DNA of 57,899 bases from Macrostomum lignano. Lineage: Eukaryota. The notes below the pieces were generated by a model, which saw only the letters and a program-made list of their open reading frames with translations, was not told where the DNA came from and did no database searches. Positions within the stretch are counted from its first letter, which is position 1; the number at the start of each line of letters is the position of its first letter. The stretch is taken from assembly GCA_002269645.1 (NCBI GenBank), contig NIVC01004149.1, forward strand, positions 1 to 57,899. The letters are read 5' to 3'. This document shows, in pieces, positions 15,001 to 54,718 of the stretch. Made by a program: the position numbers and the translations under genes.

Positions 15001-16684
15001 AGCGTCATGTAAAAATCATAGAAGCGTCATGTAAAAATCATAGAAGCGTCATGTAAAAATCATAGAAGCGTCATGTAAAAATCATAGAAGCGTCATGTAA
15101 AAATCATAGAAGCGTCATGTAAAAATCATAGAAGCGTCATGTAAAAATCATAGAAGCGTCATGTAAAAATCATAGAAGCGTCATGTAAAAATCATAGAAG
15201 CGTCATGTAAAAATCATAGAAGCGTCATGTAAAAATCATAGAAGCGTCATGTAAAAATCATAGAAGCGTCATGTAAAAATCATAGAAGCGTCATGTAAAA
15301 ATCATAGAAGCGTCATGTAAAAATCATAGAAGCGTCATGTAAAAATCATAGAAGCGTCATGTAAAAATCATAGAAGCGTCATGTAAAAATCATAGAAGCG
15401 TCATGTAAACAATCATAGAAGCGTCATGTAAAAATCATAGAAGCGTCATGTAAAAATCATAGAAGCGTCATGTAAAAATCATAGAAGCGTCATGTAAAAA
15501 TCATAGAAGCGTCATGTAAAAAATCATAGAAGCGTCATGTAAAAATCATAGAAGCGTCATGTAAAAATCATAGAAGCGTCATGTAAAAATCATAGAAGCG
15601 TCATGTAAAAATCATAGAAGCGTCATGTAAAAATCATAGAAGCGTCATGTAAAAATCATAGAAGCGTCATGTAAAAATCATAGAAGCGTCATGTAAAAAT
15701 CATAGAAGCGTCATGTAAAAATCATAGAAGCGTCATGTAAAAATCATAGAAGCGTCATGTAAAAATCATAGAAGCGTCATGTAAAAATCATAGAAGCGTC
15801 ATGTAAAAATCATAGAAGCGTCATGTAAACAATCATAGAAGCGTCATGTAAACAATCATAGAAGCGTCATGTAAAAATCATAGAAGCGTCATGTAAAAAT
15901 CATAGAAGCGTCATGTAAAAATCATAGAAGCGTCATGTAAAAATCATAGAAGCGTCATGTAAAAATCATAGAAGCGTCATGTAAAAATCATAGAAGCGTC
16001 ATGTAAAAATCATAGAAGCGTCATGTAAAAATCATAGAAGCGTCATGTAAAAATCATAGAAGCGTCATGTAAAAATCATAGAAGCGTCATGTAAAAATCA
16101 TAGAAGCGTCATGTAAAAATCATAGAAGCGTCATGTAAAAATCATAGAAGCGTCATGTAAAAATCATAGAAGCGTCATGTAAAAATCATAGAAGCGTCAT
16201 GTAAAAATCATAGAAGCGTCATGTAAAAATCATAGAAGCGTCATGTAAAAATCATAGAAGCGTCATGTAAAAATCATAGAAGCGTCATGTAAAAATCATA
16301 GAAGCGTCATGTAAAAATCATAGAAGCGTCATGTAAAAATCATAGAAGCGTCATGTAAAAATCATAGAAGCGTCATGTAAAAATCATAGAAGCGTCATGT
16401 AAAAATCATAGAAGCGTCATGTAAAAATCATAGAAGCGTCATGTAAAAATCATAGAAGCGTCATGTAAAAATCATAGAAGCGTCATGTAAAAATCATAGA
16501 AGCGTCATGTAAAAATCATAGAAGCGTCATGTAAAAATCATAGAAGCGTCATGTAAAAATCATAGAAGCGTCATGTAAAAATCATAGAAGCGTCATGTAA
16601 AAATCATAGAAGCGTCATGTAAAAATCATAGAAGCGTCATGTAAAAATCATAGAAGCGTCATGTAAAAATCATAGAAGCGTCAT
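1..16684. repeat. 22-bp tandem satellite, consensus TCATAGAAGCGTCATGTAAAAA, about 760 copies, open at the window start
   Basis: Uninterrupted tandem units. Rare variants are +A or GTAAACAATC. The first ~900 bp are noisier. No spacers. Confidence 0.99.
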
Positions 16685-17164
16685 TCATAGAAAAAAACTA
16701 ATGAAAGTGTCATTTAAAAGAAGCATCATGGTAGAATAAAAGAAGCGTCATGTCAGACATGAAGGGTGTCATGTAAAAATTAAATGCAGCTATAATGCTG
16801 TGCTGGGGAGAAAAACTGAGACGTCAAGGCTCTCAGAGAATAACTGAGATTAGGGGGGGGGGTTTCTGTGATGTCAAAGCAAAAGTCAGAAGCTACTTCA
16901 AAGTTCATGTACTTTACTCAATTTTTTTATTGTATTCTTTGTTGGCTCGCCACTGGGGGGGGGCGCTGATAGAAGAAGAGTCATGTAAAAAATAAAAGTA
17001 GCACTACGTATACATAAAAGAAAAGTCATGTCGAAGTTAAAAGACTTCATTTGGGAATTGCTACGAGTCAAAGCTTGGTGGAAATTGTTATAGTGCTGTG
17101 ATTCTTAAAGAAGGAATCACTAAAATGTCAAGGCTTAGGGGAGAAGAATTGCTGAGATTTCAAG

Positions 17165-17220
17165 GCTTTAGGTTGGGTTAAAGTTAGGTTTAGGTCAGGT
17201 GTGGGTTGAGGGTTAGATTT
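17165..17220 (+). repeat. Degenerate telomere-like tract
   Basis: TTAGGTTGGGTTAAAGTTAGGTTTAGGTCAGGTGTGGGTTGAGGGTTAG, at an equivalent position of the ~500-bp unit to the perfect tract. Confidence 0.55.
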
Positions 17221-17596
17221 TATCGGGTTTCAAGGTTAACAGAATAACAGGGGATTTTTTAGATTTCAAGGTTTATGGGGGCCATCGCTGACATGTTAAG
17301 GTTTACGGGGGGAATAGCTGAGATGTCAAGGCTCACGGGGGTATAAATGAGATTTCAAGGCTAAAGTCAGAAGCTACATGTAGTTTATTGAAAACTTTTT
17401 ATTACATTATTTGATGCCTCCTCAGGGGAGGGATCGCTGATAGAAAAAGCGTAATGTAAAAAATAAAAGAAGCTTCATGTCGAAGTTAAGAGATTCATTT
17501 GGGAATCCCTACGATGTCGAGGCTTGCAGGGAATCGCTATAATGCTGTAGTAGTGCTATAATGACTCTTAGAGAGAATTACTGAAAATTCAATGCT

Positions 17597-17670
17597 TTAG
17601 GGTTAGGTTAGGGTTAGGGTTAGGGTTAGGGTTAGGGTTAGGGTTAGGGTTAGGCTAGGGTTAGGGTTAG
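17597..17670 (+). repeat. Interstitial telomeric repeat (TTAGGG)n, about 12 units
   Basis: Direct reading: mostly perfect TTAGGG with two TTAGG and one CTAGGG variant. Confidence 0.95.
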
Positions 17671-17896: not shown

Positions 17897-18297
17897 TAAT
17901 CCACTGACATCCACCCATAGCATATTCGAAACAATAAGAAAATAATCTGCATTCTTCTCGATCAAACAATGAGCGTCATAGACAATTCCAAAGTTTGCGA
18001 TTCGCTCCAACTCAGTGCTCCCATTCGATACACTAAACTCCTTGAACATGTACGCCCAAAAGTTACTGATCAGAGCCACATCCGCATCATGCTTGTCAAC
18101 GTTAGCACGAGCCGCATCCGCACCACCCTTTGTCTTGAATTGAAATGTCATATGGAAGCCGCTCTTAAGACTGTGCACACTAACCAAAGACGAACATCCA
18201 TTGTATGTAAATGTCAGTGTTTGACCAGGACCAAGATTAGTTTCATTCTGATTTTCCTGACTGGGAACTCTTACCTGAGTCGCTTTGATTGTGCTAT
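17897..18297 (-). pseudogene. Polinton relic: TIR-internal fragment fused to a major capsid gene fragment
   Basis: 17897-17959 resembles the TIR interior (~19360-19420, ~28580-28630). 17955-18297 is nearly identical to the MCP segment 21540-21882. The junction shares TTCTC. Confidence 0.9.
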
Positions 18298-18979
18298 TGT
18301 AACGTTTGGTTGTCTCTGGGTTGTCTCGAGGTGGCCTGGCAGGTCTTTGTATCCCACCGCTGCCACCAGTGTAACGTTTGCCCTTTGCTTCGGTCCTATA
18401 GATTTGCCTGAAAATGACCCTAAAACGTTAGCCTTGACTTGGTAGGGTTGCTGCCACCTTGGTGTGCGGACTCGACGTGTCGGCAGAGTTGTCTATCCAT
18501 CACCTGAAATAAAATTAACGAAGACACTCGGAGCAAAGGCCAAATCTGAAAATGTCTCGACAGTCGATCGTCTTAGTTGAATGCTGCTCGGACCTGAAAA
18601 CCTGTAAAACCTGAAATGAGAGAGGAGAGCTCGGAGGCAGAGGCTTCACGAGTTAGCCACAATGCTCCGCGAGACGACGCAGTCTACGAACACGGTCTGG
18701 AGAAAATTGGCTCGCAGATGCTCCGTATTTATAGACGAGCAGACCCCCAAAAGTCACGTGAGTTTCATGCGGTGAGCGCGTGAAACTTCCTTATTTGGGC
18801 ATTAAAATCATGCGAACGACGCGTGATTCAAGGATAACTTCCAAATAAGGCAATCCTGTCACGCATCAGTGGCGTGACTCAAGGTCAGTGGCCGCGCACA
18901 GCATGCGTGCACAGTCACGTGCTTTTCTGTGCTAAAAATAGAACTTGGGCGGATGAGTCATCCTGTTTACTACCTCTGG
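18298..18979 (-). mobile_element. Possible truncated LTR (or promoter fragment) on the minus strand
   Basis: Minus strand ends ...AAACGTTACA, a typical LTR end. It has a TATA box and upstream enhancer motifs, and abuts the Polinton relic and the Polinton A terminus. No second LTR is seen. Confidence 0.4.
18726..18960 (-). promoter_or_regulatory. Pol II promoter/enhancer motif cluster: TATA, 2 CArG, 2 E-box, 2 AP-1, MEF2, GC box
   Basis: TATAAATA (minus) 18726-33; CACGTG 18755 and 18916; CCTTATTTGG 18789; CCAAATAAGG 18841; TGACTCA 18875; CTAAAAATAG 18932; GGGCGG 18947; TGAGTCA 18954. Confidence 0.6.
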
Positions 18980-19758
18980 AGTAGAAGGCATGAGGGGGCT
19001 TCTGGGACAAAATTTTTCACCTCCTCCATAATCCACCTAAATCCATCCATATTATCCCTGACAGAATCAGAAAAAAAGGGGGGTCGCACTCGCTAACAAA
19101 ACGTCCTCCATAATCCACCTAAATCCTTCCATATTATCCCTGACAGAATAAGAAAAAAAAGGGGGGTCGCACCCGCTCACAAAACGTCCTCCATAATCCC
19201 ATTAAATCCATCCATATTATCCCCGAAAGAATCATGAAAAAGGGGAGGGGCCGCACTTGCTCCGAAAACTTTAATCCCATTAAATCCATCCATATTATGA
19301 CTGACAGAATATGGGAATATGGGTCCACTGATACCTGTTATGCTCACTGACACAGACATAATCCACTGACATCCATCCATAGCATCTTCGAAACAATCAG
19401 AAAAAAATATGCATTCTTCTCCCCACATTCAATTCGCAACATGAAACCAGATCCCTAAAACTTTAAACCCCCTAACCCAGGGTCCTTACCCTTTGAAAAA
19501 AAAATTAAATTTTCTCTAAAAATGTTTCCAGTTGTCTCTCCAGGTTCTTATTACAAAGCGCACGAGCCTAATTACAAGAGTAAGTACCGATGCAAACTAG
19601 AATGCAGCGAGTACATGAGAAAATATTGGCCCGACGTTGATATCAATGTCCCTAATATTAATCTAGCTCTCCAAAGACACTGGTTTCATAAGTATGGAGT
19701 AACCTACGTAAAAGATTACGACAGCTACTATAACTTTGCAGAAATCATTAGGCAATTG
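18980..19758 (+). repeat. Left terminal inverted repeat of Polinton A (~780 bp) with internal ~82-bp tandem units
   Basis: Reverse complement of 43432-44183. CCTCCATAATCC recurs at 19023, 19105 and 19188. Confidence 0.88.
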
Positions 19759-19761
19759 TGA
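19522..19761 (+). CDS. Small TIR-embedded ORF (79 aa), function unknown
   Basis: Open in both left TIRs (also 28729-28968) despite nucleotide divergence, and present in the right TIR. It has an A-rich ATG context. Confidence 0.6.
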   Translation: MFPVVSPGSYYKAHEPNYKSKYRCKLECSEYMRKYWPDVDINVPNINLALQRHWFHKYGVTYVKDYDSYYNFAEIIRQL

Positions 19762-19765
19762 TTTC

Positions 19766-20629
19766 TCACATTCTCTCAATGATTAACGTCAATACAAACT
19801 CTTCCCCATTAAAATCAACGCCCATCCCATCTTCAGTCTCAAACTGAAGCACAATCTCGTGAATCTCCTTATTACTCAATACAACTCTTTTCACTGGATT
19901 TGGTTTCTCTACCACCATCTGTCCTCCAGCTACAGAGTTGGAGATGTTGTACAAAATATTAGTTCGCTTTCCCTTAAATACCCAATCAAGACTGAGATTA
20001 GTTCTGATTAGAATATTCAAACCCTTTACAATGTCTGCTATATTGGGTGCTAAGAACAAACCGCGTACACTTTCCCGGGCCATGCTAACGGCCCCCGATG
20101 CTTGAGTGACAGTCCGCGCTGTGGATTCTGCCTTATAAACTTTCTTCACGAATCCCAATTCCCTATACCAAGTGTCATCTTTAAACTCAACCTCCGCATC
20201 TTTGTGAACTTGCATGACCACTCTCATTACAGTGAGATCATAGGTTAGTTTAACAGGGAACAGTTTCTTCTCTGGCTTACTCATATCAGGTGTCTCAAAA
20301 TGGCCTCTTTTAGTAAAGACGTTTTCTAGAAAGTAATTGTAGGTATCCACACTTTGCGTGCTCACAGGGAATACCACAGGTTCTGCTGCTGCACCTTTCC
20401 ATTTGTAATAAAACTTATTATTTGCTGCCGTCACATTGGGAACGTTTGACCAACCAGTGAAGTCGTTAAGATAGACATGGTAATTAGCACCTGGATCCAG
20501 GCTAATCGCCTGCTCTAATTTTTGAACAAATATCCCGTTTGAGTCATTAATCCGCCCAGTTATTGTAATAGGAATGCTCTCCTTGGAGTGCGAAATAATA
20601 TTGTTTAGTCTTTCGGCTATAGCTTCCAT
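19766..20629 (-). CDS. Polinton minor capsid (penton-like, single jelly-roll) protein
   Basis: ~287-aa beta-rich ORF next to the MCP, with a C-terminal ...IVLQFETEDGMGVDFNGEEFVLTLII typical of Polinton minor capsids. The ATG is at 20629 (the track used a non-ATG start). Confidence 0.7.
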   Translation of the reverse strand: MEAIAERLNNIISHSKESIPITITGRINDSNGIFVQKLEQAISLDPGANYHVYLNDFTGWSNVPNVTAANNKFYYKWKGAAAEPVVFPVSTQSVDTYNYFLENVFTKRGHFETPDMSKPEKKLFPVKLTYDLTVMRVVMQVHKDAEVEFKDDTWYRELGFVKKVYKAESTARTVTQASGAVSMARESVRGLFLAPNIADIVKGLNILIRTNLSLDWVFKGKRTNILYNISNSVAGGQMVVEKPNPVKRVVLSNKEIHEIVLQFETEDGMGVDFNGEEFVLTLIIERM

Positions 20630-20654
20630 TTTTTTCACCCACAAAAAAAAATAT

Positions 20655-21940
20655 TTAAACTTTACTGGATGAATTGTTGATCATGTTAAGCTTCACCTTC
20701 CTCTCAAATGCATAGATAATGTACAGGTCCACGGGTGTTGCGACAGTCCTCTCAATGTTAGTCACGATATTCACAGGGCTGTTATCAGTAGGCATTTGTC
20801 TGGCAGACACATCAGCGCCAAACATTGGATATAGAGTTCCATATTGAAGAGCAGTGATAGCAATTCCATTGTTCTCTTTCACAGCCAAGTCGACCAACTC
20901 GCTGTAAAATTTGCTAATCTTGTTCTGACTGAAATCTCCATTTTGTGGCAGTGCAGGGTAAAGATTATCACTGATTTCATGCTGAATGGACCGCACGTCT
21001 CCATGCATGTAGCGTATAATGCTATTTGGGTTTCTCATGTTAATAATAATATACCGTGGATTGCTGCATGATCCCTCTTTAATGCAGATGTTTGTTCTAG
21101 TTTCGTTTCGCTCATCTCGACACATGTAGGCCGTGTATGCAACATCAATGTCCTTCTCTATTGCCTTAAGATAATCCGCTTTTAGTGCAGTCTTTGGCTC
21201 AATGACTTCCAAATACAGCTCGATTCCGGTTAGCTTCACCTCCATCCTTGTGTGATCCGCCCCAGTCCACAACACTCTACTGCGATCATCTCTAGTCATC
21301 CTAAAGGTGTAGCTAAAGTTACTAGTCAGTCGATTAAATGTATTACAGAATCCACTCATGAATCTCAGTGGTACAAATACATCAACAGACCGATACAGCG
21401 GGTTTTTAGCAGCATCATCAGCACCTTGCAATGCATAGTTGTATCTCTTCTTCCTCTTTTTATAGCCACTGTCATTGTGTCTCCTTCTTTTTCATCTGCG
21501 ATAAAACCCGCACCACTTCCCAACTGAATAAAATCAGGATTCTCGATCAAACAATGAGCGTCATAGACAATTCCAAAGTTGGCGATTCGCTCCAACTCAG
21601 TGCTCCCATTCGATACACTAAACTCCTTGAACATGTACGCCCAAAAGTTACTGATCAGAGCCACATCCGCATCATGCTTGTCAACGTTAGCACGAGCCGC
21701 ATCCGCACCACCCTTTGTCTTGAATTGAAATGTCATATGGAAGCCGCTCTTAAGACTGTGCACACTAACCAAAGACGAACATCCATTGTATGTAAATGTC
21801 AGTGTTTGGCCAGGACCAAGATTAGTTTCATTCTGATTTTCCTGACTGGGAACTCTTACCTGAGTCGCTTTGATTGTGCTATCATCACTCAAAATAGGCT
21901 TGTTAATTTTGTAGAAAACTGGTGTCAGTGGGTCGTTCAT
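20655..21940 (-). CDS. Polinton major capsid protein (double jelly-roll), one 1-nt frameshift near 21477
   Basis: The two ORFs join into ~428 aa; copy B is continuous across this site. Beta-rich, with VFVPLRFMSGFC, KLTGIELYL and YPMFGADVS segments. Size and position fit an MCP. Confidence 0.75.
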
Positions 21941-21970
21941 TTTTTAACTAAAAATAAAATAAAATAAGAA

Positions 21971-23184
21971 ATGAAGCGAAAAAGTACACAGCAGATATCT
22001 GAATTGGAGAAGCTAGCACAAGCAGAGAAACGAGTTACCGGGCTAATAAATAAGGAGCAACAATCCTACAATGAGTTTGTCCAAGCAGCCACAGAGTTTC
22101 ATAAGCCCGGGTATGGAGAAGCTAAGAAAAATATTGATCAGGTCAAAGAAACTATCGACGACATACAGGAAACCCAAGTGCAAAAGGTTTTGGGCAAAAT
22201 TCCAGAAGCACCACAGATACAGCCGCAACCACAACAACCACAACCACAACAGCAACTAAAAGTGACAGATAACATTTTTGGACCAGTAGAGCGTGTCGAA
22301 CATGATGGGAAATATGTATTTGGAATAAGTATGTGGAGAAAAAACATTTATAATGAACCAGTGGAATATTATATCGACATAAATAAGGAAAATATTTCTG
22401 TTGTCAAAGGCTAGAAGCTATGAAAATTCCTTTCACAGACGCCTTACTGACTTTTATGACCAAGAACCAAGAGAGAATCTCGGACAAGCAGCTAAAGAAC
22501 TACAGAGATCTAGTGACTTTTGCTCTTGCTAGAGATATAGAAATACTAAAGGCCCCAGAAGTCCTGAGACTTATGTATGATAACGGTGTCAACCTGACTA
22601 AATTCAAAAAGTACAAGCACTTTAAACAATGGTTTGGTTTGCCAGATCAGGGGGAAGTCATTGATCAGATGAAATATCTAGAACAACAGCAACAGCAACC
22701 ACAACAACAACAACGACCGCCACAACAGCAGCAACATTTCACAGAAGAACAAGTACTCAGTCAACTCGAGCAGTTAGACCCTTTGAAAGTAGCTGAATAT
22801 AAGAAACAAAACCCAACAGACTGGCAACGCTTAGAACAACACTCTCCAGATCGAATGAACAGAATCAATCAAAGAGTTTTCACACCTCAACAAAGACAGG
22901 CACCACATGACAGTTCCATCTCTGAAAGTGAGCAGTCTTTTGCATCACCTCCCCAGCAGCTACAAGCCCAACCAACTCCACAACCCCAAGACCAACCGCC
23001 CTCAACTGGAAAAGGAATTTCTGAAATCTACAAGCGAGTAGCGGTTCTTCTAGGAGCGGCAAAGACCGGAATGAAAGATGAAAATAGAAAAGAATTTGTC
23101 AACATCCTCAATAAAATGCTTGAGAGAAAATACATCGATAAGAGGGCGAGAGAGCTTCTGCTTTCGCGGTTCAACAAAAAATAA
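21971..23184 (+). CDS. Gln-rich Polinton protein (~404 aa), split by a 1-nt frameshift near 22410
   Basis: Copy B reads through here (GTCAAAGGTTTAGAAGCT versus GTCAAAGGCTAGAAGCT). The C-terminal helical domain is RVAVLLGAAKTG...EFVNILNKMLERKYI. Confidence 0.7.
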
Positions 23185-23201
23185 ATATCTATTTAAAAAA
23201 G

Positions 23202-23591
23202 ATGCCAATTATTTTCGAAAAAGACATTGACAAATACTATGACAAAGAGGAACTTAATCTTATTAAACGCGGATCTGGACTTTTCCCTGCAGGCCACTAT
23301 CCAAGAAAAGAGCGCTCCGGGAATGGCCTTGCCGATTTGATCGCTCAGGGGGCTAAGATTTTTAAGGTCATTGGAGAGAACAAAGAGAACATCAAGAACG
23401 TTGCCGAAGCGGCTGGCAGTGTAGCCACAGCAGCCAAAAAGATAAAGGATACTGTAACACCTAAACAAGAGATTCAACCTCCACTGGCCCCGCTGGCCCC
23501 GCTGGCCCCAAACCCAGACAGTGTGGACCCTGCAGTCTATGAGAAGATGAGAGCAAGCATTAAAAAAGGAAGTGGTTTCAAATTTGACTGA
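23202..23591 (+). CDS. Small basic/amphipathic putative virion protein with repeated G-x-G motifs
   Basis: 129-aa ORF conserved in copy B, with KRGSGL, RSGNGL and KKGSGF motifs and an amphipathic helix. Confidence 0.6.
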   Translation: MPIIFEKDIDKYYDKEELNLIKRGSGLFPAGHYPRKERSGNGLADLIAQGAKIFKVIGENKENIKNVAEAAGSVATAAKKIKDTVTPKQEIQPPLAPLAPLAPNPDSVDPAVYEKMRASIKKGSGFKFD

Positions 23592-23640
23592 GGGTACTTT
23601 CCGAGGGTACAAGAAATGTAAAGGTACAAGACTAGTCTCA

Positions 23641-23820
23641 AAATGACACATCTAAGTCCCAAAATGACACATCTAAGTCCCAAAATGACACATCTAAGTC
23701 CCAAAATGACACATCTAAGTCCCAAAATAACACATCCAAGTCCCAAAATGACACATCTAAGTCCCAAAATGACACATCTAAGTCCCAAAATGACACATCT
23801 AAGTCCCGAAATGACACATC
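23641..23820. repeat. 21-bp VNTR (AAATGACACATCTAAGTCCCA), about 8 copies
   Basis: Direct tandem repeat; about 4 copies at the matching site in copy B. Confidence 0.95.
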
Positions 23821-23861
23821 TACATTATTTATTATTTAAATTTTTTTTCATCATAGAAAAA

Positions 23862-24662
23862 ATGGACTTTTCAAACGACTTCAATCCTCACTGGACACGT
23901 AATCAGATTAAGTTTTCTCATCATGAGTCAATCCCAAGTCACTTCAGATGCATTGTTGTTGGTTCATCAGGTTCAGGTAAAACATTCAGAGTCTTTAACA
24001 TGCTTCTTAGACCTGGCTTTATCGACTATGACACTCTGCACATCTACTCTCCCACACTGTATCAAGATGAGTATAAAATGCTGATTTCTGGATTGCAAAA
24101 CAAACTGAACAAAGAGGACATTATTCAATGTTTTAATAACCAGCAAATCCTTCCCAGTAACCCTGAAATTGTAGCTGCCGAATATGCAAAGCACCTCAAA
24201 GACAATGAAAAATGGCAGAACATTAAAGTGTTCACCTATGGAGATCCACAGGCTGATCCAAAGACCAAACTTCTACCCCAACCAGATGAGCTAGAAAAGG
24301 GGAGAAAGCATTTGATCGTCTTTGATGATTGTATGACAGGCCCACAGAAGCAGATAGAAAACTATTTTACAAGAGGGCGACATAACAATTGTAATGTAAT
24401 TTACATTGCACAGAACTGGTTCGAGCTCCCGAACAAAACAATTCGTGGGAACTGCAATCTGATTCTCCTGTTTCCAACCATTCCACAGGACAGGTTAAAA
24501 AGATTTTACAATGAGGTCATTGCGCCTGCCTATTTCATAAATCCAACAAAAAACTCAAGCAGAAAGATTTCACAAGAGGAATTCGTTAATCTTTGCTATG
24601 ACAAGTGGAATCAGCCTTACCAGTTTGTGATTATCAGCAAAGAAAAAAGAACTGTAATTTAA
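23862..24662 (+). CDS. A32/FtsK-like genome packaging ATPase
   Basis: Walker A GSSGSGKT, Walker B LIVFDDC, and the FTRGRHNNCNVIYIAQ motif (A32-type R-H and Q). The likely start is ATG 23862 (MDFSNDF). Confidence 0.93.
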   Translation: MDFSNDFNPHWTRNQIKFSHHESIPSHFRCIVVGSSGSGKTFRVFNMLLRPGFIDYDTLHIYSPTLYQDEYKMLISGLQNKLNKEDIIQCFNNQQILPSNPEIVAAEYAKHLKDNEKWQNIKVFTYGDPQADPKTKLLPQPDELEKGRKHLIVFDDCMTGPQKQIENYFTRGRHNNCNVIYIAQNWFELPNKTIRGNCNLILLFPTIPQDRLKRFYNEVIAPAYFINPTKNSSRKISQEEFVNLCYDKWNQPYQFVIISKEKRTVI

Positions 24663-24678
24663 AATTTGCTATTAAAAG

Positions 24679-35722: not shown

Positions 35723-38700
35723 CTAAACCCAATATCCACCTCCTAAACCTAACCTCCAATGCCCGAACGGTAGACTGTTGATATTGTCATCAAAAATGAA
35801 TCTCTTGTTATCTGCACCTGACAGTCCAATCTTCTTTTGCTGAATTGTGTGAATAATATGGTTTTTAGATTGTAGCTTTGAGAACTCATGTGATGTCTTT
35901 TTGTTGCAATTCAAGGCGTCTCTGTATTCAGCTTCATTAATTTCCTTCCTAACACACGTTTCGGAATTCCCTTTGATTTTTTATTGGGTCTGACGACTCA
36001 CATTTTATAAAATAGGACTTTGCTCTCAACCCAATGAATTCAGTGATTATGTCACCAGCAATCTCGTCCTTCATTTTCCCAATCACTTTCTTGTTAGTGG
36101 CGTCAAACACTTGATCGCCATTCTGTGTCCTGAAAGATTCATCATACTCAGACAAGTCAAACAAATCTTTTTGCTGCAGCATGTCCTGATAAATGTCTTC
36201 TGTTTGAATGTCCATAATAAAACTGTCTGTGTCAGTGTACAAGAGTTTCATTTTATCCTTGTACTGCTGCTTCATGCCATAGAAGAACTGGTACATCAGA
36301 CGTTTTGATTCGTCGAGAACAGTGACACCTGTATAGATCGGCTTGCGCAGCGTCACCTTGGTTTTGTAAAATATGATCACACCTAAGTAGCTATTAAAGA
36401 TATGGAGTTCTTTGAATGTTGGCTTTGACATATTTGCCTGAATAACATCAGGCTCTGATGAGGTAACAAGTTTCAGGTTTGTTCTTTTCCGCTCATTCTC
36501 AAGAGTCTTGCCATAGACAGAGTTGTTGGCCAACTTAAAGAGGTTCTTGTCAAAGTCGTTGGTTGCTTTGGTCCTAAACTGGGTGTTCTTATCAATGTAG
36601 GGTTTCATCCACGCTTCCTCTGTAAATGTAAGAGCCCGGTGAACTTGGTGACCCTGCAACCAAGTGAGATAAAATACTGAAGCAGTTTGTAATGGATTTT
36701 GTAACGTGTCTTGTTGTTTAGATTCTGTGTTAGTTTCTCTGTATGTTCTTTTTCTGTTCCTGACAGGTGCCAAGTTCCATTATTATCATTGGGAGTTTCG
36801 ATTATTTTCGGGCACTTGATGTTCTCTGGGAAGGGTGGAAAGTCAGAGAAATAGTCGTGAAGCTCTGGTGGAATGTAAACATCAACCTCATAAATGGCAG
36901 CCAATGAAAAGTCCCGTTTGAATTCTGATGAGGGTAGCCATCGAAAATCTCTAACTGGAAGATCTTGACTCATCGCCCACCCGTAGAGATTATTAGCGTC
37001 CAAGTAAGTAATGTAGTTTGAGGGCTGCTCCTTATTGTAAGATTCAATGTAGGGATTGTTTGCTTTTGCATACTATGTGCAAATTGAGATTCCCCCTCGC
37101 TTTGACGATTCGACAAAATTGTACATGTCAATGTCTGTAAGAAGTTCAATGTACCAATCTGGATCTTGATCCCATTTCATTTTAAGCAAAGATTCCCAGC
37201 TAGTGGCAGGCAGAGACACATAATGTGCTGGATCGAGGCCATATGCTGTGTACCAGGTGATCTGAAGGTTTCAAACACATCGGCCAGCAGAAACACATCT
37301 GTGTAGAGGTAAAGCAGGTGATACTGGAAGAAGTTTTGACAATTAAAGTAATTATAGACATGCTTCGCGTGCTCATAGTCTTTGTCAGAGATTCCAGAGT
37401 CTGTTAGCTTTGAAAAGAACTTCTTGTGGTGGTAAACCTTCTTCAAATACGTGATACCCAGTAATATTTTCATAGGGGTAGAAGCCTTTGGTTCTCAGGA
37501 GTTTAAATGATTCATCAGTGTTGTTAATTTTACTTGCAAACATCTTTGTATATGTACATTGTTCATCTTTTAGATTCTTGCTTAGTTCGTCTAGACTGGC
37601 AGCTAGAAATTGATATGAATCCTTCAGTCTTATTTTACCTTACCCGAATTATCCTGTTTAATATCAACACACTTAAACTTCTCCTTGTTCTCTGCGATGC
37701 AATCAAGGTGTATGTCTGGAATCATGCCGATTTTTTCAACTATTAAATGCATGTCATAGTTCTTTGCGTTGTGACAAAATATCGTTAGATCATGAATGTT
37801 CGATTTTAGCTTTAGATTACAGGTGTTATGCGCTGCACCTCTAAATTTCCCAGTAAGTGGCAGTGGTCCCTAACGGTGGGGTTTTTAATATTAGTGCAAG
37901 TTAAATGTTTCCTGCAGATGTGGCAATGAGTTGCTGATAGGAAATTGCTTTCATCCTCCTCAGTCATCATTATTGGAACAGGTTGAAGGGTGCTAATCAT
38001 TTTTGCAACTCTAACATTCTGGCAATAAACTGCTCCACACACTGCTCTCCAAAGAAATAATTATACTCAACAAGTCCTTTTGTATTAATAAAGGCATATG
38101 CTACTGAATTGGGGACATGTTTTTGAGTTTGAGTTTGTTTTTGAGTTGGAGTTTGTTTTTGAGTTGGAGTTTGTTTTGAGTTTCTGGCACGATTGAGCAT
38201 TCGAAATCAGCATATACAACAAATGGGAGCTTCTCCATCTTGTGATAGTTCTTAAACCGGAGATACTTCTCTTCAGCTGAAGGAAGAGAGCAGTTTGTCG
38301 GGTGATCCTCGCATGATAATTCATGCTCTGCTAGTTTTTCAAAGCGTTCAGGTCCACTGTAATGCTTAAGGCACAAGCGGCAGATGGCAACAGCCTCGTG
38401 ATGATTATTCAACTGCTTGTGAATGAGTCTTGAAAGATCTTTAATCCAAACATAGTGAGCCTCCTCTAGTAAATTACCAATCACTAGAAGATCCACTTCA
38501 GTCCGCCTTTTCCCCTCGGATCTAAAACGTCTTTGCTACATCTGACCGGTTGAACTTTCTCAGTTTTTCACTCCACTCAAAGACTGTGATTCTAATTTTG
38601 TTATTAAACACTTCTTCTAGCTTTGGGATCTGAGAGATCGCCAAGCCTCCTTTGTCAAACCTGATTCCCTTCTTTTCGCATTCATGAGATAGTAGTTGAA

Positions 38701-39588
38701 ATAATTTTGATAATTTGAGGTTCTTTCGGGGTGGTGAGGGACACTAAAAAGTGCAGAAAGAACTGCCCATAGAGCACAGCAATTGTCTTTATTTTTAACA
38801 TTTATGCAAGCTTTTTTACCGGCTAGCTTATGCGGGAGCTCTATATAAGAGGAGGCTTTAAGTGGGTCATATTTCATGACCATGACAGTCGCTCTTTGAA
38901 TCCCTCCCACGACCCATCCGGAACCTCTGGATGTAAACGCTTCAATTTTCTTATTGACATCTTGAAGGAAAGGATCCAGTGTGTCTGTTGGGGTGAATGG
39001 CTTTGCCTTTGTTGTCATGTAATACTCGAGATGCTCAGTGGGTTTTGCAGGCATATAAAACGCAATCTTGAATGATATCTGTAGTTTAAAGGTCTTGCGT
39101 GTTTTGAGTGTGTGATCAACAACTGATTGGATGCTGTCTTTATAGTCGTAGATGTTTGCGGTGGTACCGTTGGTGCCGTTAATTGGGATTGTGTACTCTA
39201 TGTAATGTTCTGTAAACTTCCTCTGTGCAAAATTAATCTCTTCAGTGGCAAGCTCCGACTCTTTTAAATGGATTAATTGCTCTAATTTCTCTTGTTCCTG
39301 CTTATTTTGTGGGTACTTTGCTTTTTCACCAGTGAGAGTTTCATATTTGTTAACTAAGTTGCGACTCCTCTCTTGGTGTTCCTTTGCAGAATTTTTTATA
39401 GGCGCATACTGGTTTGATTCTAATTGATTGATGATTTCCAACTGTTTTTCATAGCTTCCCAGGTGACCAGGGTCGGTGTTGAACTTTTGTTTGCATGCTT
39501 CTCTTAGTGAATTACTTTTGTCTTGAAATGAGACGCCTTTTGAAAAATATTTGTTGACTAAATCTCTTGCTGGATTAGCTTTTGGCAT
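35723..39588 (-). CDS. Full-length protein-primed DNA polymerase B, broken by multiple 1-nt indels
   Basis: N-terminal GSGWVVGGI...YDPLKASSYIELP...INVKNKDNCCALW, HYVWIKDLSRL, CRLCL zinc motif, VYADFE exonuclease I, endonuclease VII-like CHIC...RDHCH, and polymerase motifs DANNLYG, NSVYGK, YTDTDS. Confidence 0.93.
38120..38185. repeat. 18-bp in-frame tandem repeat inside polB (TQKQTP x3-4)
   Basis: GTTTTTGAGTTGGAGTTT units. Confidence 0.85.
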
Positions 39589-39709
39589 TTTTCTCGAAAA
39601 TATAAAAAAATTTTGAGGGTGACCACCCTGATAGAAAAGTTGAACTGTTTCTACATCCTATAAGTAGTTTAGGTTTATGAAGCTGGATAAAGTGGGGTTT
39701 TAAACCTCA

Positions 39710-40155
39710 TCACATCCGCATTATTGTAAACCCAGCATTGTGCAGTGTCATGATGGCTTTGACAATGTCAGACTTGCTTACAGAATTTTCATGCTCACAA
39801 TCATCACGATCGGGGCAGCCCTCTCCTGCCTTAATTGTTATACCTTTGTCTCTTGCAATCTTTTGCAATTCCAGCTGGTGGGCTCTATCATTCCCAGCTT
39901 TAACAGCAGTTGCTACACCTCCAGCTACACCACCTGCGGCACTTACAGCGCCTGCAATGATCGGAATAAGAGCTGCTAATGGTAGGATTCCTCCTGACTT
40001 TTCATCTGTGATGCTGTGTCTTTGTCATTACACTGAACTATTTGCTGCGTGGGATCGATTTTTACTTTGACACCTTTAATTGATATAATACCTGGTTTCT
40101 TTGATTCAATGATTTTATTGAGTTTATTGATGGTTCTGGTTTCAATCTTTGTCAT
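39710..40155 (-). CDS. Adenovirus protein X (mu precursor)-like core protein, one frameshift near 40020
   Basis: Manual translation: MTKIETRTINKLNKII...(fs)...TDEKSGG|ILPLAALIPIIAGAVSAAGGVAGGVATAVKAGND..., like the pX C-terminal MRGG|ILPLLIPLIAAAIGA. Absent from the supplied track in this frame. Confidence 0.65.
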
Positions 40156-40171
40156 TTTTTATTTTAATATT

Positions 40172-41198
40172 TTAATTAATTTCTGTGTCAGCTGGTATCA
40201 CTAGGAGTTCAGCTCTAGTGAATGACCGCGTGGGGGATTTAGGGTTAAAGGCCTGAGATAAAAAGTAATAGTCACCGGAGTCGGAGGTAAAATGTCTGTC
40301 TATTTTATGTACATCAAGGCTGAAGTATGGATCTGTAGCTCTTCTTTTGGTGTCTTTCTCTAGCTCTCCAGGTAGATATAAAAAGCGTAGAAACTCAGAG
40401 TTTGTCAGTATGTATGGTGATTCAACTCCTGGAAGCTTAGGGTAGTTCGAGGTGTGTTTTGTGTTGTGTGTGTTGTGTGGGGTTGTCGTGTTGTTGTCTG
40501 TTCTATGAGATGCCTTAAGTTCGACAGTGTCTTGTTTAATTGCATGGGATGGTTTCAATCCAGTCATGCGTGTGACTTCATTGTTCAGTTGCTCTATAAC
40601 AGTGGGGAGTCTCTGTCCACTTGGTATAGTACTGCCACTCAGTTTCAGTCTTGCGCTGTCTGCTTAGTGAATAGCCTCTTGGCTAGAGTTAGATTGAATC
40701 TTTCCACAAAAGCCTGGTCTCTGTGCAAGTTTGTTCTGCCATAGCGAATCTCTGTGTTTTTCTTTTCCATAAGGGATTTCACTACACCCATGAATTCCTT
40801 ACCCGGGTCGGTCATAAAGATTTGGGGTATGTGAGCGGAGAGTTTTTATAAATATCTTGCAGTGCGCTGGCAACAACCTCTGACTTCTTCGTCTTGAGTG
40901 GGCGAGCTTCCTTATATCTGGAAGCAATGTCAATAATTGTAAGAGCATACTTGTAGCCTGAGTCGTTGGGGAGAAACAAAAGATCTGCTTGGTGCGCTTC
41001 ATTAGGTTTATAAATACTGAAATGGGCCTTTCAAATTTTACTGGTGGGAAATAGACTTGAAAGACAGCCTGCTTAGAGAGCCATTTTTCTACTGTAGCTT
41101 TTGGCTCTTACTCAGCTCCATGAGTTTACTAACGCATTTTTGCCTACAAAGAATCCTTTGTCGCTGTAGTAGAGTTTTTTAAGTTTCTGATCTGTCAT
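40172..41198 (-). CDS. Retroviral-like (rve, DDE) integrase, frameshifted
   Basis: Manual translation: KLYYSDKG...HQADLLFLPNDSGYKYALTIIDIASRYKEARPL...TDPGKEF...HRDQAFVERFNLTL, plus a C-terminal RSFTRAELLVIP. Confidence 0.9.
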
Positions 41199-41227
41199 TT
41201 ATTTAAAAAGAAAATTTAAATAAAATA

Positions 41228-41676
41228 ATGCAGCGCTCTGGTGGTAAAATAGATTCACATGGACTGATAGAAAAGCTTCCTCATCCAAACAAAGGCTGGA
41301 CACTTCCCGGCTATAAATATTGCGGGCCTTTGAATCCACTTGAAATACAGTTAGATAAAAACAATAATCCAAATCCTGGGCATGAGCCTGTGAATGAGCT
41401 AGACTCTGTCTGCATGTGGCATGACGTTAAATATAGAGATTTTCCTGAGGAGAAGAATCGCTGGGACAAAGAAATGCTTAGGAGACTAGACAATATAGGG
41501 GCTTCAAGCGGTGGAAGGAATCGATCGCTCGGAAGCTAGTTAAAGCTGTTATTTTTAGTAAGGCAAAGTTGGGATTGGGAATGGACGTCGAGGGTGGGGT
41601 GGGTTTTGCATTGCACGCGCCAAGCAAAGAATTAGGAAGACTGCTGAAAGAGCTGGGGGTTGAGAGAGCAGAATGA
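41228..41676 (+). CDS. Parvovirus-type phospholipase A2 domain protein (PLA2X-like), frameshifted near 41500
   Basis: WTLPGYKYCGP Ca-binding loop and PVNELDSVCMWHDVKY with the catalytic HD dyad. It continues ...KAKLGLGMDVEGGVGF...ERAE* in another frame. Confidence 0.85.
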
Positions 41677-41955
41677 TTCAAGTGGCTCTAGCGGTTGGAA
41701 AGAAAGCTTGTAAAGGGCGGCTATATTTTCCTTATGACATTTTGCCGTGTGGTGGGGGTGTTGAGCGGAACGGATATGGCAGCTGTTTATTGTCAACCAT
41801 TATCCTATACTCAATGTGCCGCAGATACTGCAGTATTCAATGTGAAAAGTATTCAATGTGAAAAGCAGCAGATACTGCAGTATTCAGTGTGAAAAGTTTT
41901 TTATGTGAAAAAGCAAGAGTCATAGCAGCAAGAATCATTAGTCACAGCAGATTAG

Positions 41956-42591
41956 TTAACCCAGGAGTGCACTGGCCTCTTCTTCTTCTAGCATCTTCAA
42001 TGCCTCATCGGCATACTTAATTATTGAGCGCAGTCGATACAGCGAGATGCCACAACGATTTAGAATAGGGCGAGTGTTGCTGAGTCTTGCCACCCGGATT
42101 AAGAAATTCCCCCAAACCGGCTTAAATCGAAGCTTCATGGCAAACGCTCTATATTCCTCAGCAGACAGTACGAGCTTCATGCGGATCAGAATTTTTCCAG
42201 CCTTTATTCCGTATTGAAGTCCTTGATTTTGTAGTTCATTTATCATTTTTTCAATTTTGTTGAGCTCATTCACAACTTCTGCAATGTCGTGCCTCCCAGA
42301 GACAAATTCCACAGCCGGTTGTGGAATGACACGAGCAAGTGAATCACGGAGTAAGTTCGCAGCCTCATTGATGTGCTCCAACTTCTTTCGTTCGTCAATT
42401 CCTTCCACCCTACCAGTGATAGATGGTAGATTAATCACACACTTATTGAATCGCCTCGCAACTTTGTTAAATTCCTCAATCCAATACTTCGATTGCTTCA
42501 TGTCATCACTCTCGCACATCCTCCTTACTAAAGCAACCAAATCATCCTCAAATGTAGGCATTGCTATGTCCATTGAAATTCTAAAACACAT
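41956..42591 (-). CDS. Hypothetical helical Polinton protein (~205-211 aa)
   Basis: Intact ORF inside element B, convergent with the PLA2 gene. No motif recognised with certainty. Confidence 0.6.
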   Translation of the reverse strand: MCFRISMDIAMPTFEDDLVALVRRMCESDDMKQSKYWIEEFNKVARRFNKCVINLPSITGRVEGIDERKKLEHINEAANLLRDSLARVIPQPAVEFVSGRHDIAEVVNELNKIEKMINELQNQGLQYGIKAGKILIRMKLVLSAEEYRAFAMKLRFKPVWGNFLIRVARLSNTRPILNRCGISLYRLRSIIKYADEALKMLEEEEASALLG

Positions 42592-43272
42592 TGTAGGTGA
42601 AGTAAATGAAAAAAAAGCAGAACTAGTATAAGCAAATATATTAATAATTATTACCTTGCAGATTTAAAAAATATTTAGCGCGTATATGGATACTGAATCG
42701 GGAATCAGTAGTTCTTTAGTAGGTAGAGCTCTGCTCAATACTAAGCTCTACTCTAAGATATGGCTCTAAGAATTTTTCTCAGTGCATTATACAATAGATA
42801 CAGTAGCTTCCGCGCGATCGACACTGACACGGTAACGTTGTTATCCCTGGGCGGCAAATGTGGCAGCAGCTGGTGGAACCGGTTAAAGACACAATACGCT
42901 CTCGTATACCCAGTAAGTATAAATCTATATTAACCCTGGAAGAACTCTGCCCTATACGATTTGCTGTACACGAAATGAGCGGGAGGAAAATCTATAGTTT
43001 ACAACTCCAAGTCCAAGAGGCAAGGCCGTTCTAGCTTCTATTGTGCTACAATTGAGGCACTGGCAAGCAAGAGAGGGAGAGAGGGACGGGACGGAAGCCA
43101 TGGACGGGACGGGGCTGCTAGAGTCTGGCAAGCGGGCAGAATTATAGGGCTATTGCCATATACAATTTGCTGTACACAAAATGAGCGGGAGGAAAATCAA
43201 TATTCTTCTGGATCCGAATAATATCGATTTTGGATTGTGCGAGGATCTACAATATCTTGTTCTTCCTCTACC

Positions 43273-43667
43273 CTATTCATTTCCAACCGTGCAACTAGCT
43301 CGCACGTCGCGGAGGAAATTCTCGGGCGGATAGCCCTGCACACTCAGTGTCTGCTCTTTCCTCCTTATTTCCTCCTGTTTTATGTAAATATACTTGTGAA
43401 TAAATGAACTTAGTATGTTTTTAGTAAACTTCAACTGCCTAATGATTTCTACAAAGTTATAGTAGCTATCGTAATCTTTTACGTAGGTTACTCCATACTT
43501 ATGAAACCAATGTCTTTGGAGAGCTTGATTAATATTAGGGACGATGATATCAACGCCGGGCCAATATTTTCTCATGTACTCGCTGCATTCCTTCTTGCAT
43601 CGGTACTTACTCTTGTAATTAGGCTCGTGCGCTTTGTAATAAGAACCGGAGAGACAACTGGAAACAT
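43273..43667 (-). CDS. Right-TIR copy of the small ORF, extended past the TIR boundary (frameshifted near its start)
   Basis: ATG TTT CCA at 43667. It shares MRKYWP...EIIRQL, then continues ~52 aa into unique sequence. Confidence 0.5.
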
Positions 43668-44183
43668 TTTTAGAGAAAATTTAATTTTTTTTTTCAAAGG
43701 GTAAGGACCCTGGGTTAGGGGATTCAAAGTCTTTGGGATGCGTAGCGAATTGCGAATTGAATGTGTGGAGAAGAATACAGATTGTTTTCTGATTGTTTCG
43801 AAGATGCTATGGGTGGATGTCAGTGGATTATGTAGGACACCTGCTATGCTCTGATTCTGTCGTGGAGGAAGGAGGATAGGTTAGGAGGATTATGTTCGAA
43901 GTTTTGTAAGCGAGTGCGACACCTGTTATGCTCTGATTCAGGGATAATATGGATGGATTTAATGGGATTATGTTCGAAGTTTTCGGAGCAACTAGGACAC
44001 CTGTTATGCTCTGATTCTGTCAGGGATAATATGGATGGATTTAATGGGATTATGGAGGATGTTTTGTGAGCGAGTGCGACCCCCCTTTTTTTCTGATTCT
44101 GTCGGGGATAATATGGATGGATTTAGGTGGATTATGGAGGAGGTGAAAAATTTTGTCCCAGAAGCCCCCTCATGCCTTCTACT
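43432..44183 (-). repeat. Right TIR of the Polinton locus (~750 bp)
   Basis: Ends GAAGCCCCCTCATGCCTTCTACT, the inverse of the termini at 18980 and 28280. Confidence 0.9.
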
Positions 44184-44329
44184 AGCTTATGCTGTATAGA
44201 GAGAAATGGAGACTTTTTTTAAGAAAATTTTTCGTTTGATTTCAATGGAGCCTTAAAAAAGTGGAATTCCCTCAGTCCTCCGGTTTTTTACCATAGACAC
44301 CTTGTTTAAGAGCTGCCACGACTCATGGC

Positions 44330-45749
44330 CACGAAGTGGCACCGATTTGAATTCAATTAGATTTCTTAGATTTCATTTCCCATCGATCAAAGACAAGTGG
44401 CAAGTGGAAAAAATCATAAAAGTGCTAATTTCCACTTGATAGCGATGTCACTGGCAGAAAGAAAGAAAGCCAGCTGTCCAAGCGTTATTTGAAGCATGAT
44501 GCGGTGCCAACTATCTTTCCTAATGCACCAAATTACCTACTACTGTCCAGCAGGCAGCTCAGAGCACATGCACTGCGACATAATCTGCTCGTCTGAAGGC
44601 TGAAAACATGCGTCTCGATGATCAGATTGCTAACTTTCTTTACTATTGATTCAATTCTAATTGCTCGTTCAGAGAAATTCAAGAACTGCTCGATTCAGAG
44701 GAAGCGAGACCAGGGTGGCTTTCCCACTGCAATATGCAACGAGTTCCTGTGCATCTTCATGCTGGAAGTGAATTGCATGTCTGCCAGGTTGCGTGCTCCA
44801 TCTGCATTGGACCCGATCGCAACGTACGGATCTCCTTTGGTTTAAAAGGCGCGGCACTGTTTGCAAGACACGGTGATAGAATTGCTTGGCACAGATAGAA
44901 ACATTTCTGAGCAGTTGAGCAGTAAGCCAAAGAGCTCCAGGAGATCCTTTCGAAAGCTGATGGTCTTGTGCTACATGATCTATTCAGTAAGTGCTGCAGC
45001 CTACGGACTTCTACGTGAACAATCTCGGCTGCCATCAGAGAGAACTCTGCTATCAATCACTCGGAGAATTGAAAAGGATGGATTAGATTATCAGAGTTAA
45101 CTTCGGTTGCGAGCGTCCAACAAGTCGACACAGATGGAGCGAGTTGTGATGCTAATCATTGATAAGATCTATGGGGCCAATCGAATTGAGAATTGAGCTC
45201 CGACTGCACGGTTATTTACTATACAAGCGGAGCAGTCGCTAGGAAGTTCGTGCAAAGAAAGCGAGGATGCGGATCTTCCCGCGACCTTCTGCTTGGCTCT
45301 GACGATCTGCCGCCCCTTCATGAGGTGGGATTGGTGGTGGGACTGACTGATGGTGGGATTGAGGCCACAGCCATTGCCTTCTTGGAGGAGATCAACCGCG
45401 GTGGCCTGTCCAAGCCGTCTGATATCGCTTTTGGGCTGGCCAGACACGTTGGCAGGTGTTCTAGGAGATCTGGCAGAGCGATGAACTGCGCAGACGGCTG
45501 CTGCATTCTCCCAATCAGATGCAGCTGTTCTGTCACTTTATTGACGAGATGATGGATGAAAACTACTATCTGGAACATTTCATGGGTCAGACGATGTGCA
45601 TGGAGTGTCATGATGCGAAAGAAGGACTCGTCTGTGCATTTTTCAACTTTATGATGAAAAATCTTGTCAAAGACATTTCGGTTGGTGGAGCTGGGGCTCG
45701 AAATAAGCGAATGTCGGCTAAACTTTCTAGTGCTAGCTCAAATAAGTAA
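44330..45749 (+). pseudogene. Decayed, internally deleted P-element/THAP9-like transposase
   Basis: THAP end LKHDAVPTIFPNAPNYL (44489), SAAAYGLLREQSRLPSERTL, VMLIIDKIY, then C-terminal YYTSGAVARK...INRGGLSKPS. The catalytic core is missing and there are many stops. Boundaries are approximate. Confidence 0.75.
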
Positions 45750-47289
45750 CTTCGATTTGTGTCAATGACAAAGTAACTTCTGTCTGAGATCCCAACTGCT
45801 CCGACAAATCTAACCTGCTCGCTTCCGTTTTGTGTACACTCCTTTGCCTGCTCTACATGTGCGTTATCATTTTATACTCGTTTTTTGTTTTAATTTGAAT
45901 TCTTTGAATAAAAACACTAGCCAAAAAATATTCCGTCGCTTCATTTTTGAGTTTGACAGATTCCGCAGAAAACAGAGAAAAAAGTCATAAAAATCAATAA
46001 GAAAAACTGGCCTCATGAGACAACGGGTATTTCTTCGCTTCCACTCCAGATGCTAATTATAGAACTCCTTGCCTGAGAAAATCGTCCGAGGGCTTTCAAC
46101 CATAAAACGATTTTCTTATCGCGTGTGAAAAAAATTTACCCCAGTAAACTGATACATCTTTTCATTGAGGGTTTTAACCACAGACAAAATGTCAGCGATG
46201 AGAGACCTATCCGACTTGGTATAACCAGCAGATAGTCCAGGCCAGATCGGAGTGGTTACCAGCAGAGTAAACAGGGAACAGTCTAAAGTTGATGTAGTAT
46301 TTCAAAATGCCTGGGCAGACAGAGTGTAATTTAGCCTATCAATATTGTGATGGGTTTCGGCCTTTTCGGCTCCTTTGTGGAAGCCTTCGGACCTCAGGTC
46401 TCTTAAATGAATCCATTAGAATCCTGGCCCTCCACTCCTGTCAGATGGTCAGCCCCACGGTAGCTTGATCTGTGGCGAGCAGTCTAGGTCCTATAGCTAA
46501 GAGAGGGACAGCGAGAGACAAGCAGGGAGAATTTTAAAGGTAGAGATTAGCCAGTCCGCAGATTAACTAAGCCGCTGCCACCAGCCCGTGCGTTCTGGCT
46601 CACCAAACCGGAACTTTCGAAATCGGGCTTCCGACTAGAGGGGGCTTAGCACTTACCTGCCAACTATTGTCTTTTTGCTGTCAATCTCGAAGTCATAGCC
46701 GATGATAAGGGACACTGCTGGGACTAGATCGCATTGGCCATGCAGGTATAGAGGGGACTTGTGCAGGGCATTCTTGCAGTGGCGAGACTATGGGGTAGCT
46801 ACATGTACTATTACATTGCTAAATACGAGGAATTGTACTTTTGGCCTTCAACGCACCAACCAGCCTCTCGTAGCGCTGATGATAGACTAACTCGAACTTC
46901 AGAGACCGCATGATTCATTTACCCGAGCCGCTTGGCGAACCTAGAGTGCACAAAGTACATCTCTGGCGCCGATTTTGCACTATTGGCAATTTTCTAACTG
47001 GTTTGATAGATTGATCGACTGAGAACTGCCTTGCCATTGGTCCACTGTGACTGGCGCCTACTAGCTTAGCTACTCATCTGAGCCATCGGCGAACAAAGAA
47101 ATAAAACTGATAAAAATAACTGTCAGATTTAACCTTCTCACTAAATCCCTTCACACTTCAGATTGAATTGGAGTATCAGACTACTATTAGTATTATTATT
47201 AAGTGATTTCTGCCTCAATAACAGCACCGCTGAACAAAATGAGTAAAAGCGTCGCCTAATCCAGCTACTGAAATAGGGGACAGATAAGG

Positions 47290-54707: not shown

Positions 54708-54718
54708 TCGAAAGCCTA

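Follow-up and report, generated by a model that had tools for sequence, protein, structure and literature searches.

The whole of contig NIVC01004149.1 from Macrostomum lignano (57.9 kb of a 764-Mb assembly, here C4149 and called the window) was analyzed, and Maverick sequence runs through it from 17897 to 44183, with host flank beyond. This region contains parts of three insertions of one young Maverick family. We favor, at a probability of roughly 0.8, a reading in which one member (B') sits inside another (A), the contig then passes by a likely misjoin into a third copy, and the frameshifts that interrupt the genes are consensus errors. The initial annotation had treated A and the copy to its right, B, as two copies to be merged into one endogenous virus that may be intact and virion-competent. 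The gene set that it listed (major capsid protein (MCP), penton, ATPase, protease, PolB and integrase) is indeed present, but the merge fails because a nested insertion interrupts A and B is a chimera. The family is young and has likely kept working capsid genes, but the window contains no single intact element.

In the assembly contigs (numbered C) the nest is four layers deep: B', A, a long terminal repeat (LTR)-like repeat and an older deleted Maverick. Read from the inside outward, B' lies in polB of A, A in the LTR-like repeat and the repeat in the older Maverick. The parts, with their terminal inverted repeats (TIRs), are as follows.

17897..18297, remnant of the older deleted Maverick (TIR piece 17897-17959 and MCP fragment 17955-18297), the outermost layer, which goes on in C5061 and C3589
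18298..18973, left part of the LTR-like repeat, starting TG and with a 4-bp target duplication, lying in the older Maverick and split by A
18974..18979, 6-bp target-site duplication of A, with its second copy at C5061:1808-1813
18980..28279, left half of element A, from TIR to mid-polB; its right half comes after B' in C5061 and C3589
18980..19758, plus strand, left TIR of A (inner end approximate)
28274..28279, 6-bp target-site duplication of B' in A's polB, corresponding to 37247-37252 of B, with its second copy beside C5061:9217 and C3589:82267
28280..39220, left part of B' (TIR, penton, MCP, Q-rich frame, ATPase, protease and most of polB); the whole of B' is 17.15 kb, C5061:9217-26369
39221..41366, mixed zone, where B' and C1811 alleles take turns along the contig and private indels are densest
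41367..44183, right end of another insertion, assembled in C1811 as well (accessory cassette and right TIR, 43432-44183)
44184..44189, 6-bp target-site duplication flanking the C1811 insertion (C35 has an empty paralogous site)

The nesting of B' in A can be followed outside the window. The junction at 28279|28280 recurs exactly in C5061, where A resumes beyond the 17.15-kb B' with its remaining part (5' half of polB, integrase, phospholipase A2 (PLA2) and TIR), and C3589 is a second contig that holds the right B' junction and A's continuation. The TIRs of this family, ~700-780 bp long, are matched within each true insertion: the left TIR of A agrees with the outer end in C5061 at 680 of 680 positions, the left TIR of B agrees with the far end of B' at 679 of 680 and the right TIR of B agrees with C1811 at 677 positions with 0 mismatches, whereas the left and right TIRs of B compare at 544 matches and 55 mismatches. 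The 6-bp target duplications, which also flank the insertions in C3530 and C1652, likewise match for A, B' and C1811 and mismatch across the window's B. These mismatched TIRs and flanks mean that B joins two different insertions. Taking an 'intact' Maverick, in the sense of Barreat and Katzourakis, to be one element with all core open reading frames (ORFs) open and with matched TIRs and target duplication, neither copy qualifies: the polB of A carries a real lesion, the 17.15-kb insertion, while the ends of the window's B do not match. An intact copy elsewhere would be masked by the assembly error rate. The remainder of the LTR-like repeat is C5061:1560-1807, and paired copies 8.7-9.9 kb apart elsewhere point to a 'solo LTR'.

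Competence is likely a property of the family rather than of the window's copies, as far as sequence can tell. Three parts of B, used as queries, gave 293, 339 and 299 candidates, and 40 from each set were scored (92-100% identity); ~95 stretches around matches were examined, and loci are overcounted owing to redundant contigs. Among the other copies, an open frame is present in 37 of 40 for MCP, 26 of 30 for penton, 23 of 32 for the ATPase, 21 of 39 for the integrase and 14 of 18 for PLA2, the MCP and integrase counts being biased upward by the choice of best-scoring matches. Among open copies the pairwise ratio of non-synonymous to synonymous polymorphism (pN/pS) is 0.06 for MCP (copies only ~5% apart at silent sites), 0.10 for the ATPase, 0.11 for the integrase, 0.13 for PLA2, 0.18 for penton and 0.35 for mid-polB. 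Comparison of the copies indicates that MCP, penton, ATPase, protease, protein-primed PolB (pPolB), rve integrase and PLA2/pX are kept under purifying selection in the family. The rve integrase would insert each copy, leaving 6-bp duplications and matched TIRs; replication would proceed by the protein-primed polymerase from the TIR ends, by analogy with what is established for Mavericks; and A, cut in polB, could act or be moved only in trans.

Whether such a family still makes particles is a separate matter. At slightly better than even odds, it is today an intracellular transposon only, its capsid genes being intact through a recent burst and past selection, with no particles formed. Maverick particles are described as unobserved in the excerpted text of Barreat and Katzourakis (2021, PMC8097293), our search of the literature from 2022 onward turned up no animal Maverick particles (which is not proof), and nesting into relatives may be expected of intracellular copying. 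However, the low MCP pN/pS at this silent divergence argues for selection during the expansion itself, and purifying selection on MCP, penton and ATPase suggests that packaging mattered until very recently. That the family makes particles today is doubtful, and we hold only tentatively the wider picture of dozens to hundreds of near-identical, still-inserting Mavericks with a full capsid module, making particles now and hidden by assembly. If true, it would offer a tractable host for the first animal Maverick virion, with full and 'snap-back' defective genomes (see below) competing in one germ line. Conservation of the capsid genes is strong in this young, high-copy family, and at least seven studies have sequenced the species, which makes it a good place for a particle search. 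No sequencing run is on record as RNA, and one marked as possible RNA (X12) covers TIRs, spacers and host flank as DNA would.

The 'snap-back' genome is an 11.3-kb palindromic derivative at C1652:28604-39932 (same flank in C3945 and C276), with a 6-bp target duplication. Its arms, of TIR, penton, MCP and Q-rich frame, are inverted around a 1.6-kb ATPase loop, which runs one way in C1652 and C276 and the opposite way in C3945; polB and integrase are absent, and the derivative was likely mobilized in trans. Along A, the nearest family copy changes every 0.5-2 kb, so that family members are mosaic, which suggests frequent recombination between elements or a partly mixed consensus.

The passage from B' to the third insertion is probably a misjoin. 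Forty-one informative sites between 39221 and 41366 alternate between the B' and C1811 haplotypes, and C1811 itself has the same flank as the window's right end, matched TIRs and its own target duplication, opposite the empty paralogous site in C35. The other way to make such a copy is ectopic crossing-over between B' and the C1811 element, which would make the window's B a real recombinant. Family members are mosaics of each other, accessory cassettes have been exchanged between copies and a true hybrid would also be expected to end in C1811 flank; yet the alleles alternate many times across 2.1 kb rather than switching once, private indels are concentrated in the same interval, and B' and A run on normally in two further contigs. 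We regard a recombinant as unlikely.

The genes, with the breaks that we read as consensus errors, are as follows.

19769..20626, minus strand, penton (minor capsid), open in A; the B copy, 28973-29865, is broken near 29300
20655..21943, minus strand, MCP (double jelly roll), broken near 21477; B copy 29859-31147, broken near 30916
21968..23184, plus strand, Q-rich ORF of unassigned function, broken near 22411; B copy 31172-32388, broken near 31859
23865..24662, plus strand, A32/FtsK-type packaging ATPase (PF04665 above cut-off), open in A; B copy broken near 33399 and 33738
25592..26305, plus strand, ORF with a central hydrophobic stretch; B copy 34612-35321, broken near 35069
26310..26711, minus strand, adenain-like maturation protease (PF00770 at or above cut-off; adenovirus proteinase, E 0.002)
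26744..28279, minus strand, 3' half of A's protein-primed PolB, open and cut off by the B' insertion
35726..39618, minus strand, pPolB of B, in pieces, with breaks near 35953, 36646, 37075, 37259, 37424, 37640, 37856, 37999, 38517, 38568 and 38683
39710..40024, minus strand, adenovirus pX-like core protein ORF (PF05829 above cut-off), break near 40025
40172..41215, minus strand, rve integrase, in pieces, with breaks near 40612, 40636, 40649, 40827, 41026, 41107 and 41134
41207..41650, plus strand, parvovirus-type PLA2 ORF (PF08398, E 5.5e-13, above cut-off), break near 41512

In ~12 kb of B we count 31 break sites, all of them net losses and 27 of them single-base; the others lie at 37075 (compound, net -3), 37424 (-2), 40612 (-2) and 40636 (-4). 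The initial annotation was right that nearly all breaks are single-nucleotide changes, and the four that it named do lie at differing places in the two copies (MCP ~21477 in A and ~30916 in B; Q-rich frame ~22411 and ~31859). Its term 'complementary' holds for these positions but not for the numbers, which are lopsided: A has 2 coding breaks in 9.3 kb, both net losses. In addition, the 5' half of polB, pX, integrase and PLA2 occur in one copy only in the window, so complementarity between A and B is uninformative on them. As it had noticed for the duplicated genes, we found no nonsense substitution, and this holds for every gene of A and B; the one in-frame stop in B's polB, near 37073, is the product of the compound indel near 37075. 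Homopolymers, invoked for many breaks, account for part of the pattern, with 14 of 32 breaks in runs of at least 3 (against 21% of bases) and 13 of 32 in no run. The stronger association is with polymorphism: 21 of 29 single-base breaks fall on sites that vary among family copies, against a 4.9% background (P 1e-21; with a 5-bp margin, P 4e-6). Korlach 2017 (PMC5632298) reports that indels arise where merged haplotypes differ, and this artefact may extend to merged repeat copies, in that reads from near-identical copies would be merged and a base dropped where the copies differ, with homopolymer slips adding to the errors.

Regions assembled twice point the same way. Between the window and C1811, over 41780-44183 (2.4 kb of one molecule), there are 18 indels and 0 substitutions, and between the window and C5061, over 1.1 kb of A's polB, there are 9 indels and 0 substitutions; the integrase is open for 342 amino acids in C5061 against 163 in the window. 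Outside the element, too, the host channel and Tc1 ORFs differ by single indels from one assembly to the other, and indels occur at ~1 per kb in the far flank. Elsewhere in the family we count 614 frameshifts (424 of -1, 82 of +1) against 4 nonsense codons, a tally that is non-independent, the same insertion appearing in several contigs, and in which the protease and 5' polB counts use imperfect references. Of B's 31 breaks, 15 are absent from C5061/C3589, 2 are broken differently there and 14 are shared with C5061; three of the 15 absent breaks (41134, 41215 and 41512), in or beyond the mixed zone, are shared with C1811. In 9038 sites the window and C5061 have 0 privately shared substitutions beside 8 near-private deletions, a ratio that real mutation would give with P < 1e-4 even if indels made up 30% of mutations. 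The shared breaks are likely due to a common read pool.

Short-read contigs, which pool all copies and drop rare variants and so speak for the family, give the longer form in four runs at 30915, 33398, 35285, 35952, 37259, 38517 and 38563 (12 of 135 indel rows). Among the 32 of 286 records listed for 38470-38730, every one that crosses 38517, 38563 or 38683 has the gap. At 38683 all depth in two of the four runs has the gap; at 38517 run X7 shows two alleles whose depths sum to the flanking depth; and at 37259 all depth in run X12 is the longer form. Of 40 assembled copies, 20 show the break at 38517, yet no listed short-read contig carries it. Our conclusion, in line with what the initial annotation had proposed, is that consensus error and not decay very likely accounts for the frameshifts, on the strength of the association with polymorphic sites, the 614-to-4 count, the second assemblies and the short-read contigs. 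Accurate reads confirming the indels in polB and the integrase were to have overturned its view; for the integrase and 5' polB this refutation fails.

Several points weigh against our reading. The junctions are known from assembly contigs only. The 14 of 31 B breaks shared with C5061 (29300 to 37999) are shared with the only other assembly found of that part of B' and so stand unrefuted at the individual loci, and a number of the polB breaks are found again in 6 to 20 further copies. The frame of polB is open in 2 of 42 copies for its 3' part and 0 of 37 across its 5' part (middle, 13 of 37), and some members of the family have truly decayed, the outer remnant and the copies in C1638, C3859, C3468 and C1391 having large deletions. 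To the pooling in the short-read contigs and the few records listed (32 of 286) we add that the runs may lack this insertion and that the 60-letter short-read records fall just short of the bridging rule; the dependence and imperfect references of the family counts, and the upward bias of the open-frame counts, also belong here. B' has no private substitution, so short reads cannot tag the B' locus for the 14 shared breaks.

These points find their sharpest form in the proposal that the frameshifts are real: B' and the copies nearest to it would form a defective sub-lineage, propagated in trans together with its polB breaks. Besides the 14 breaks common to the window and C5061, those at 35953, 36646, 37259, 37640 and 37999 recur among B's nearest relatives, and defective derivatives with perfect target duplications do exist (C1652). 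Sharing among relatives is patchy rather than nested, however, and the proposal must also contend with the missing private substitutions beside 8 near-private deletions, the tracking of polymorphic sites by the breaks, the failure of the 38517 break to appear in any listed short-read contig and the run at 37259 with nothing but the longer form; we consider it improbable. Weakest of all is a tandem duplication of one intact provirus, with the merge as the true sequence, for which very high penton and MCP identity and differing break positions might speak but which we set aside almost entirely in view of 175 mismatches in 8.7 kb plus an unalignable stretch, differing TIRs, a target duplication inside polB and the continuation of A in other contigs.

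The two copies are, on their divergence, different family members and not a fresh duplication. A (18980-28279) and B (28280-37252) are 95.1% identical over 6.1 kb (135 mismatches) and 96.9% over 2.6 kb (40 mismatches), with an unalignable stretch between; a raw global alignment, which over-counts gaps in the divergent stretch 25228-25728, does not enter these totals. Under the misjoin and consensus-error reading, this region illustrates two hazards of older long-read assemblies: the loss of bases at polymorphic sites when reads are merged can make such a family look dead, and false 'complete' elements can be built by joining different insertions.

Gene identities are firm to differing degrees. 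The penton has no sequence match in PDB or Pfam and only unnamed clusters in the Atlas; an AlphaFold2 (AF2) model (pLDDT 65) has as its top Foldseek matches the mavirus penton (E 4e-6, TM only 0.34), Sputnik and adenovirus penton bases. PF21738 matches the window's MCP fragments weakly, below cut-off, and four of four full-length relatives (67-75% identity) above it; MCP gave no sequence match in PDB and no relative in IMG/VR (59 pattern matches, 0 confirmed), and its predicted structure (pLDDT 32) was set aside as unusable. For the ORF with the hydrophobic stretch, the Atlas gave unnamed clusters only, with recognition below threshold. Relatives of pPolB at 42-46% identity, many with PF03175, span the gene in pieces by tblastn, and one piece has a weak PF03175 match. 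The integrase has PF00665 at E 7e-6 on one 72-amino-acid piece, below cut-off, and its D, D and E motifs lie in natural pieces.

On gene content rather than a tree, the family is a new member of the Alpha-adintovirus-like Mavericks. Its virion module matches that of the Alpha adintovirus / Mayetiola class (Starrett et al. 2021, PMC8502044), and it shares with Alpha adintoviruses, as the excerpts of that paper describe them, pPolB, rve, adenain, FtsK/A32, hexon, penton, parvovirus-type PLA2, a pX-like protein and endogenous residence in an animal. There, pX is the C-terminal domain of PLA2X, whereas here it is a separate ORF across the integrase, and the nearest MCP and penton relatives are unnamed metagenomic proteins at 56-75% identity. 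Like the 'intact' vertebrate Mavericks in the available text of PMC8097293, this family has TIRs and 6-bp duplications, core ORFs free of introns, and morphogenesis genes under purifying selection. It differs from them in gene order and accessory genes (PLA2, pX), and PZ/PW/PM were not identified here; its ends begin AGTAGA, against (AGT)2 or (AG)3. The ~300 candidate matches, inflated by redundant contigs, are near the top of the range excerpted from that study, in which high-copy hosts hold defective elements. As in the protist polinton-like viruses and virophages with nested insertions described in PMC12220804, a virus-like element is disabled by an insertion in a core gene, with possible rescue in trans; the invaders there are retrotransposons, whereas here the invader is itself a Maverick, in a Maverick of its own family, in an LTR-like repeat, in an older Maverick. 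A literature search on Maverick-in-Maverick nesting turned up no paper.

The accessory cassette between PLA2 and the right TIR (window 41660-43260) varies by copy. The window, C1811, C557 and C4967 have a type with a 235-amino-acid ORF (41956-42663, minus strand; no Pfam match), and B' has a different, 3.2-kb cassette with a 212-amino-acid ORF (C5061:9900-13120). A 21-bp tandem repeat 5' of the ATPase has 9 copies in A (23634-23822) and 4 in B (32836-32918), and 82-84-bp subrepeats of the TIRs are many-fold expanded in some family copies.

To the right of the element, the flank at 44190-46212 has paralogues or homeologues at 96-98% identity in C35 and C2898, both without the element, which suggests a duplicated or polyploid region. 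To its left, from a ragged contig start, a very homogeneous 22-bp satellite fills 1-16684 with 758 units, only 10 of which deviate after position 846, each by one extra base. These 10 units in 15.8 kb, all +1, were not taken to gauge the assembly error, as the sign is opposite and the setting different. TTAGGG repeats, degenerate and then perfect, follow at 17160-17670 (array at 17597-17670); with the channel and Tc1/mariner ORFs farther right, they mark the host as an animal. Farther right, a Cys-loop ligand-gated ion channel ORF (51219-52538, plus strand, 439 codons) has its ligand-binding and membrane domains in one unbroken frame, and a Tc1/mariner element (55103-56356, plus strand) has an open 417-amino-acid DDE_3 transposase between inverted repeats at ~54717-54983 and 56500-56660.

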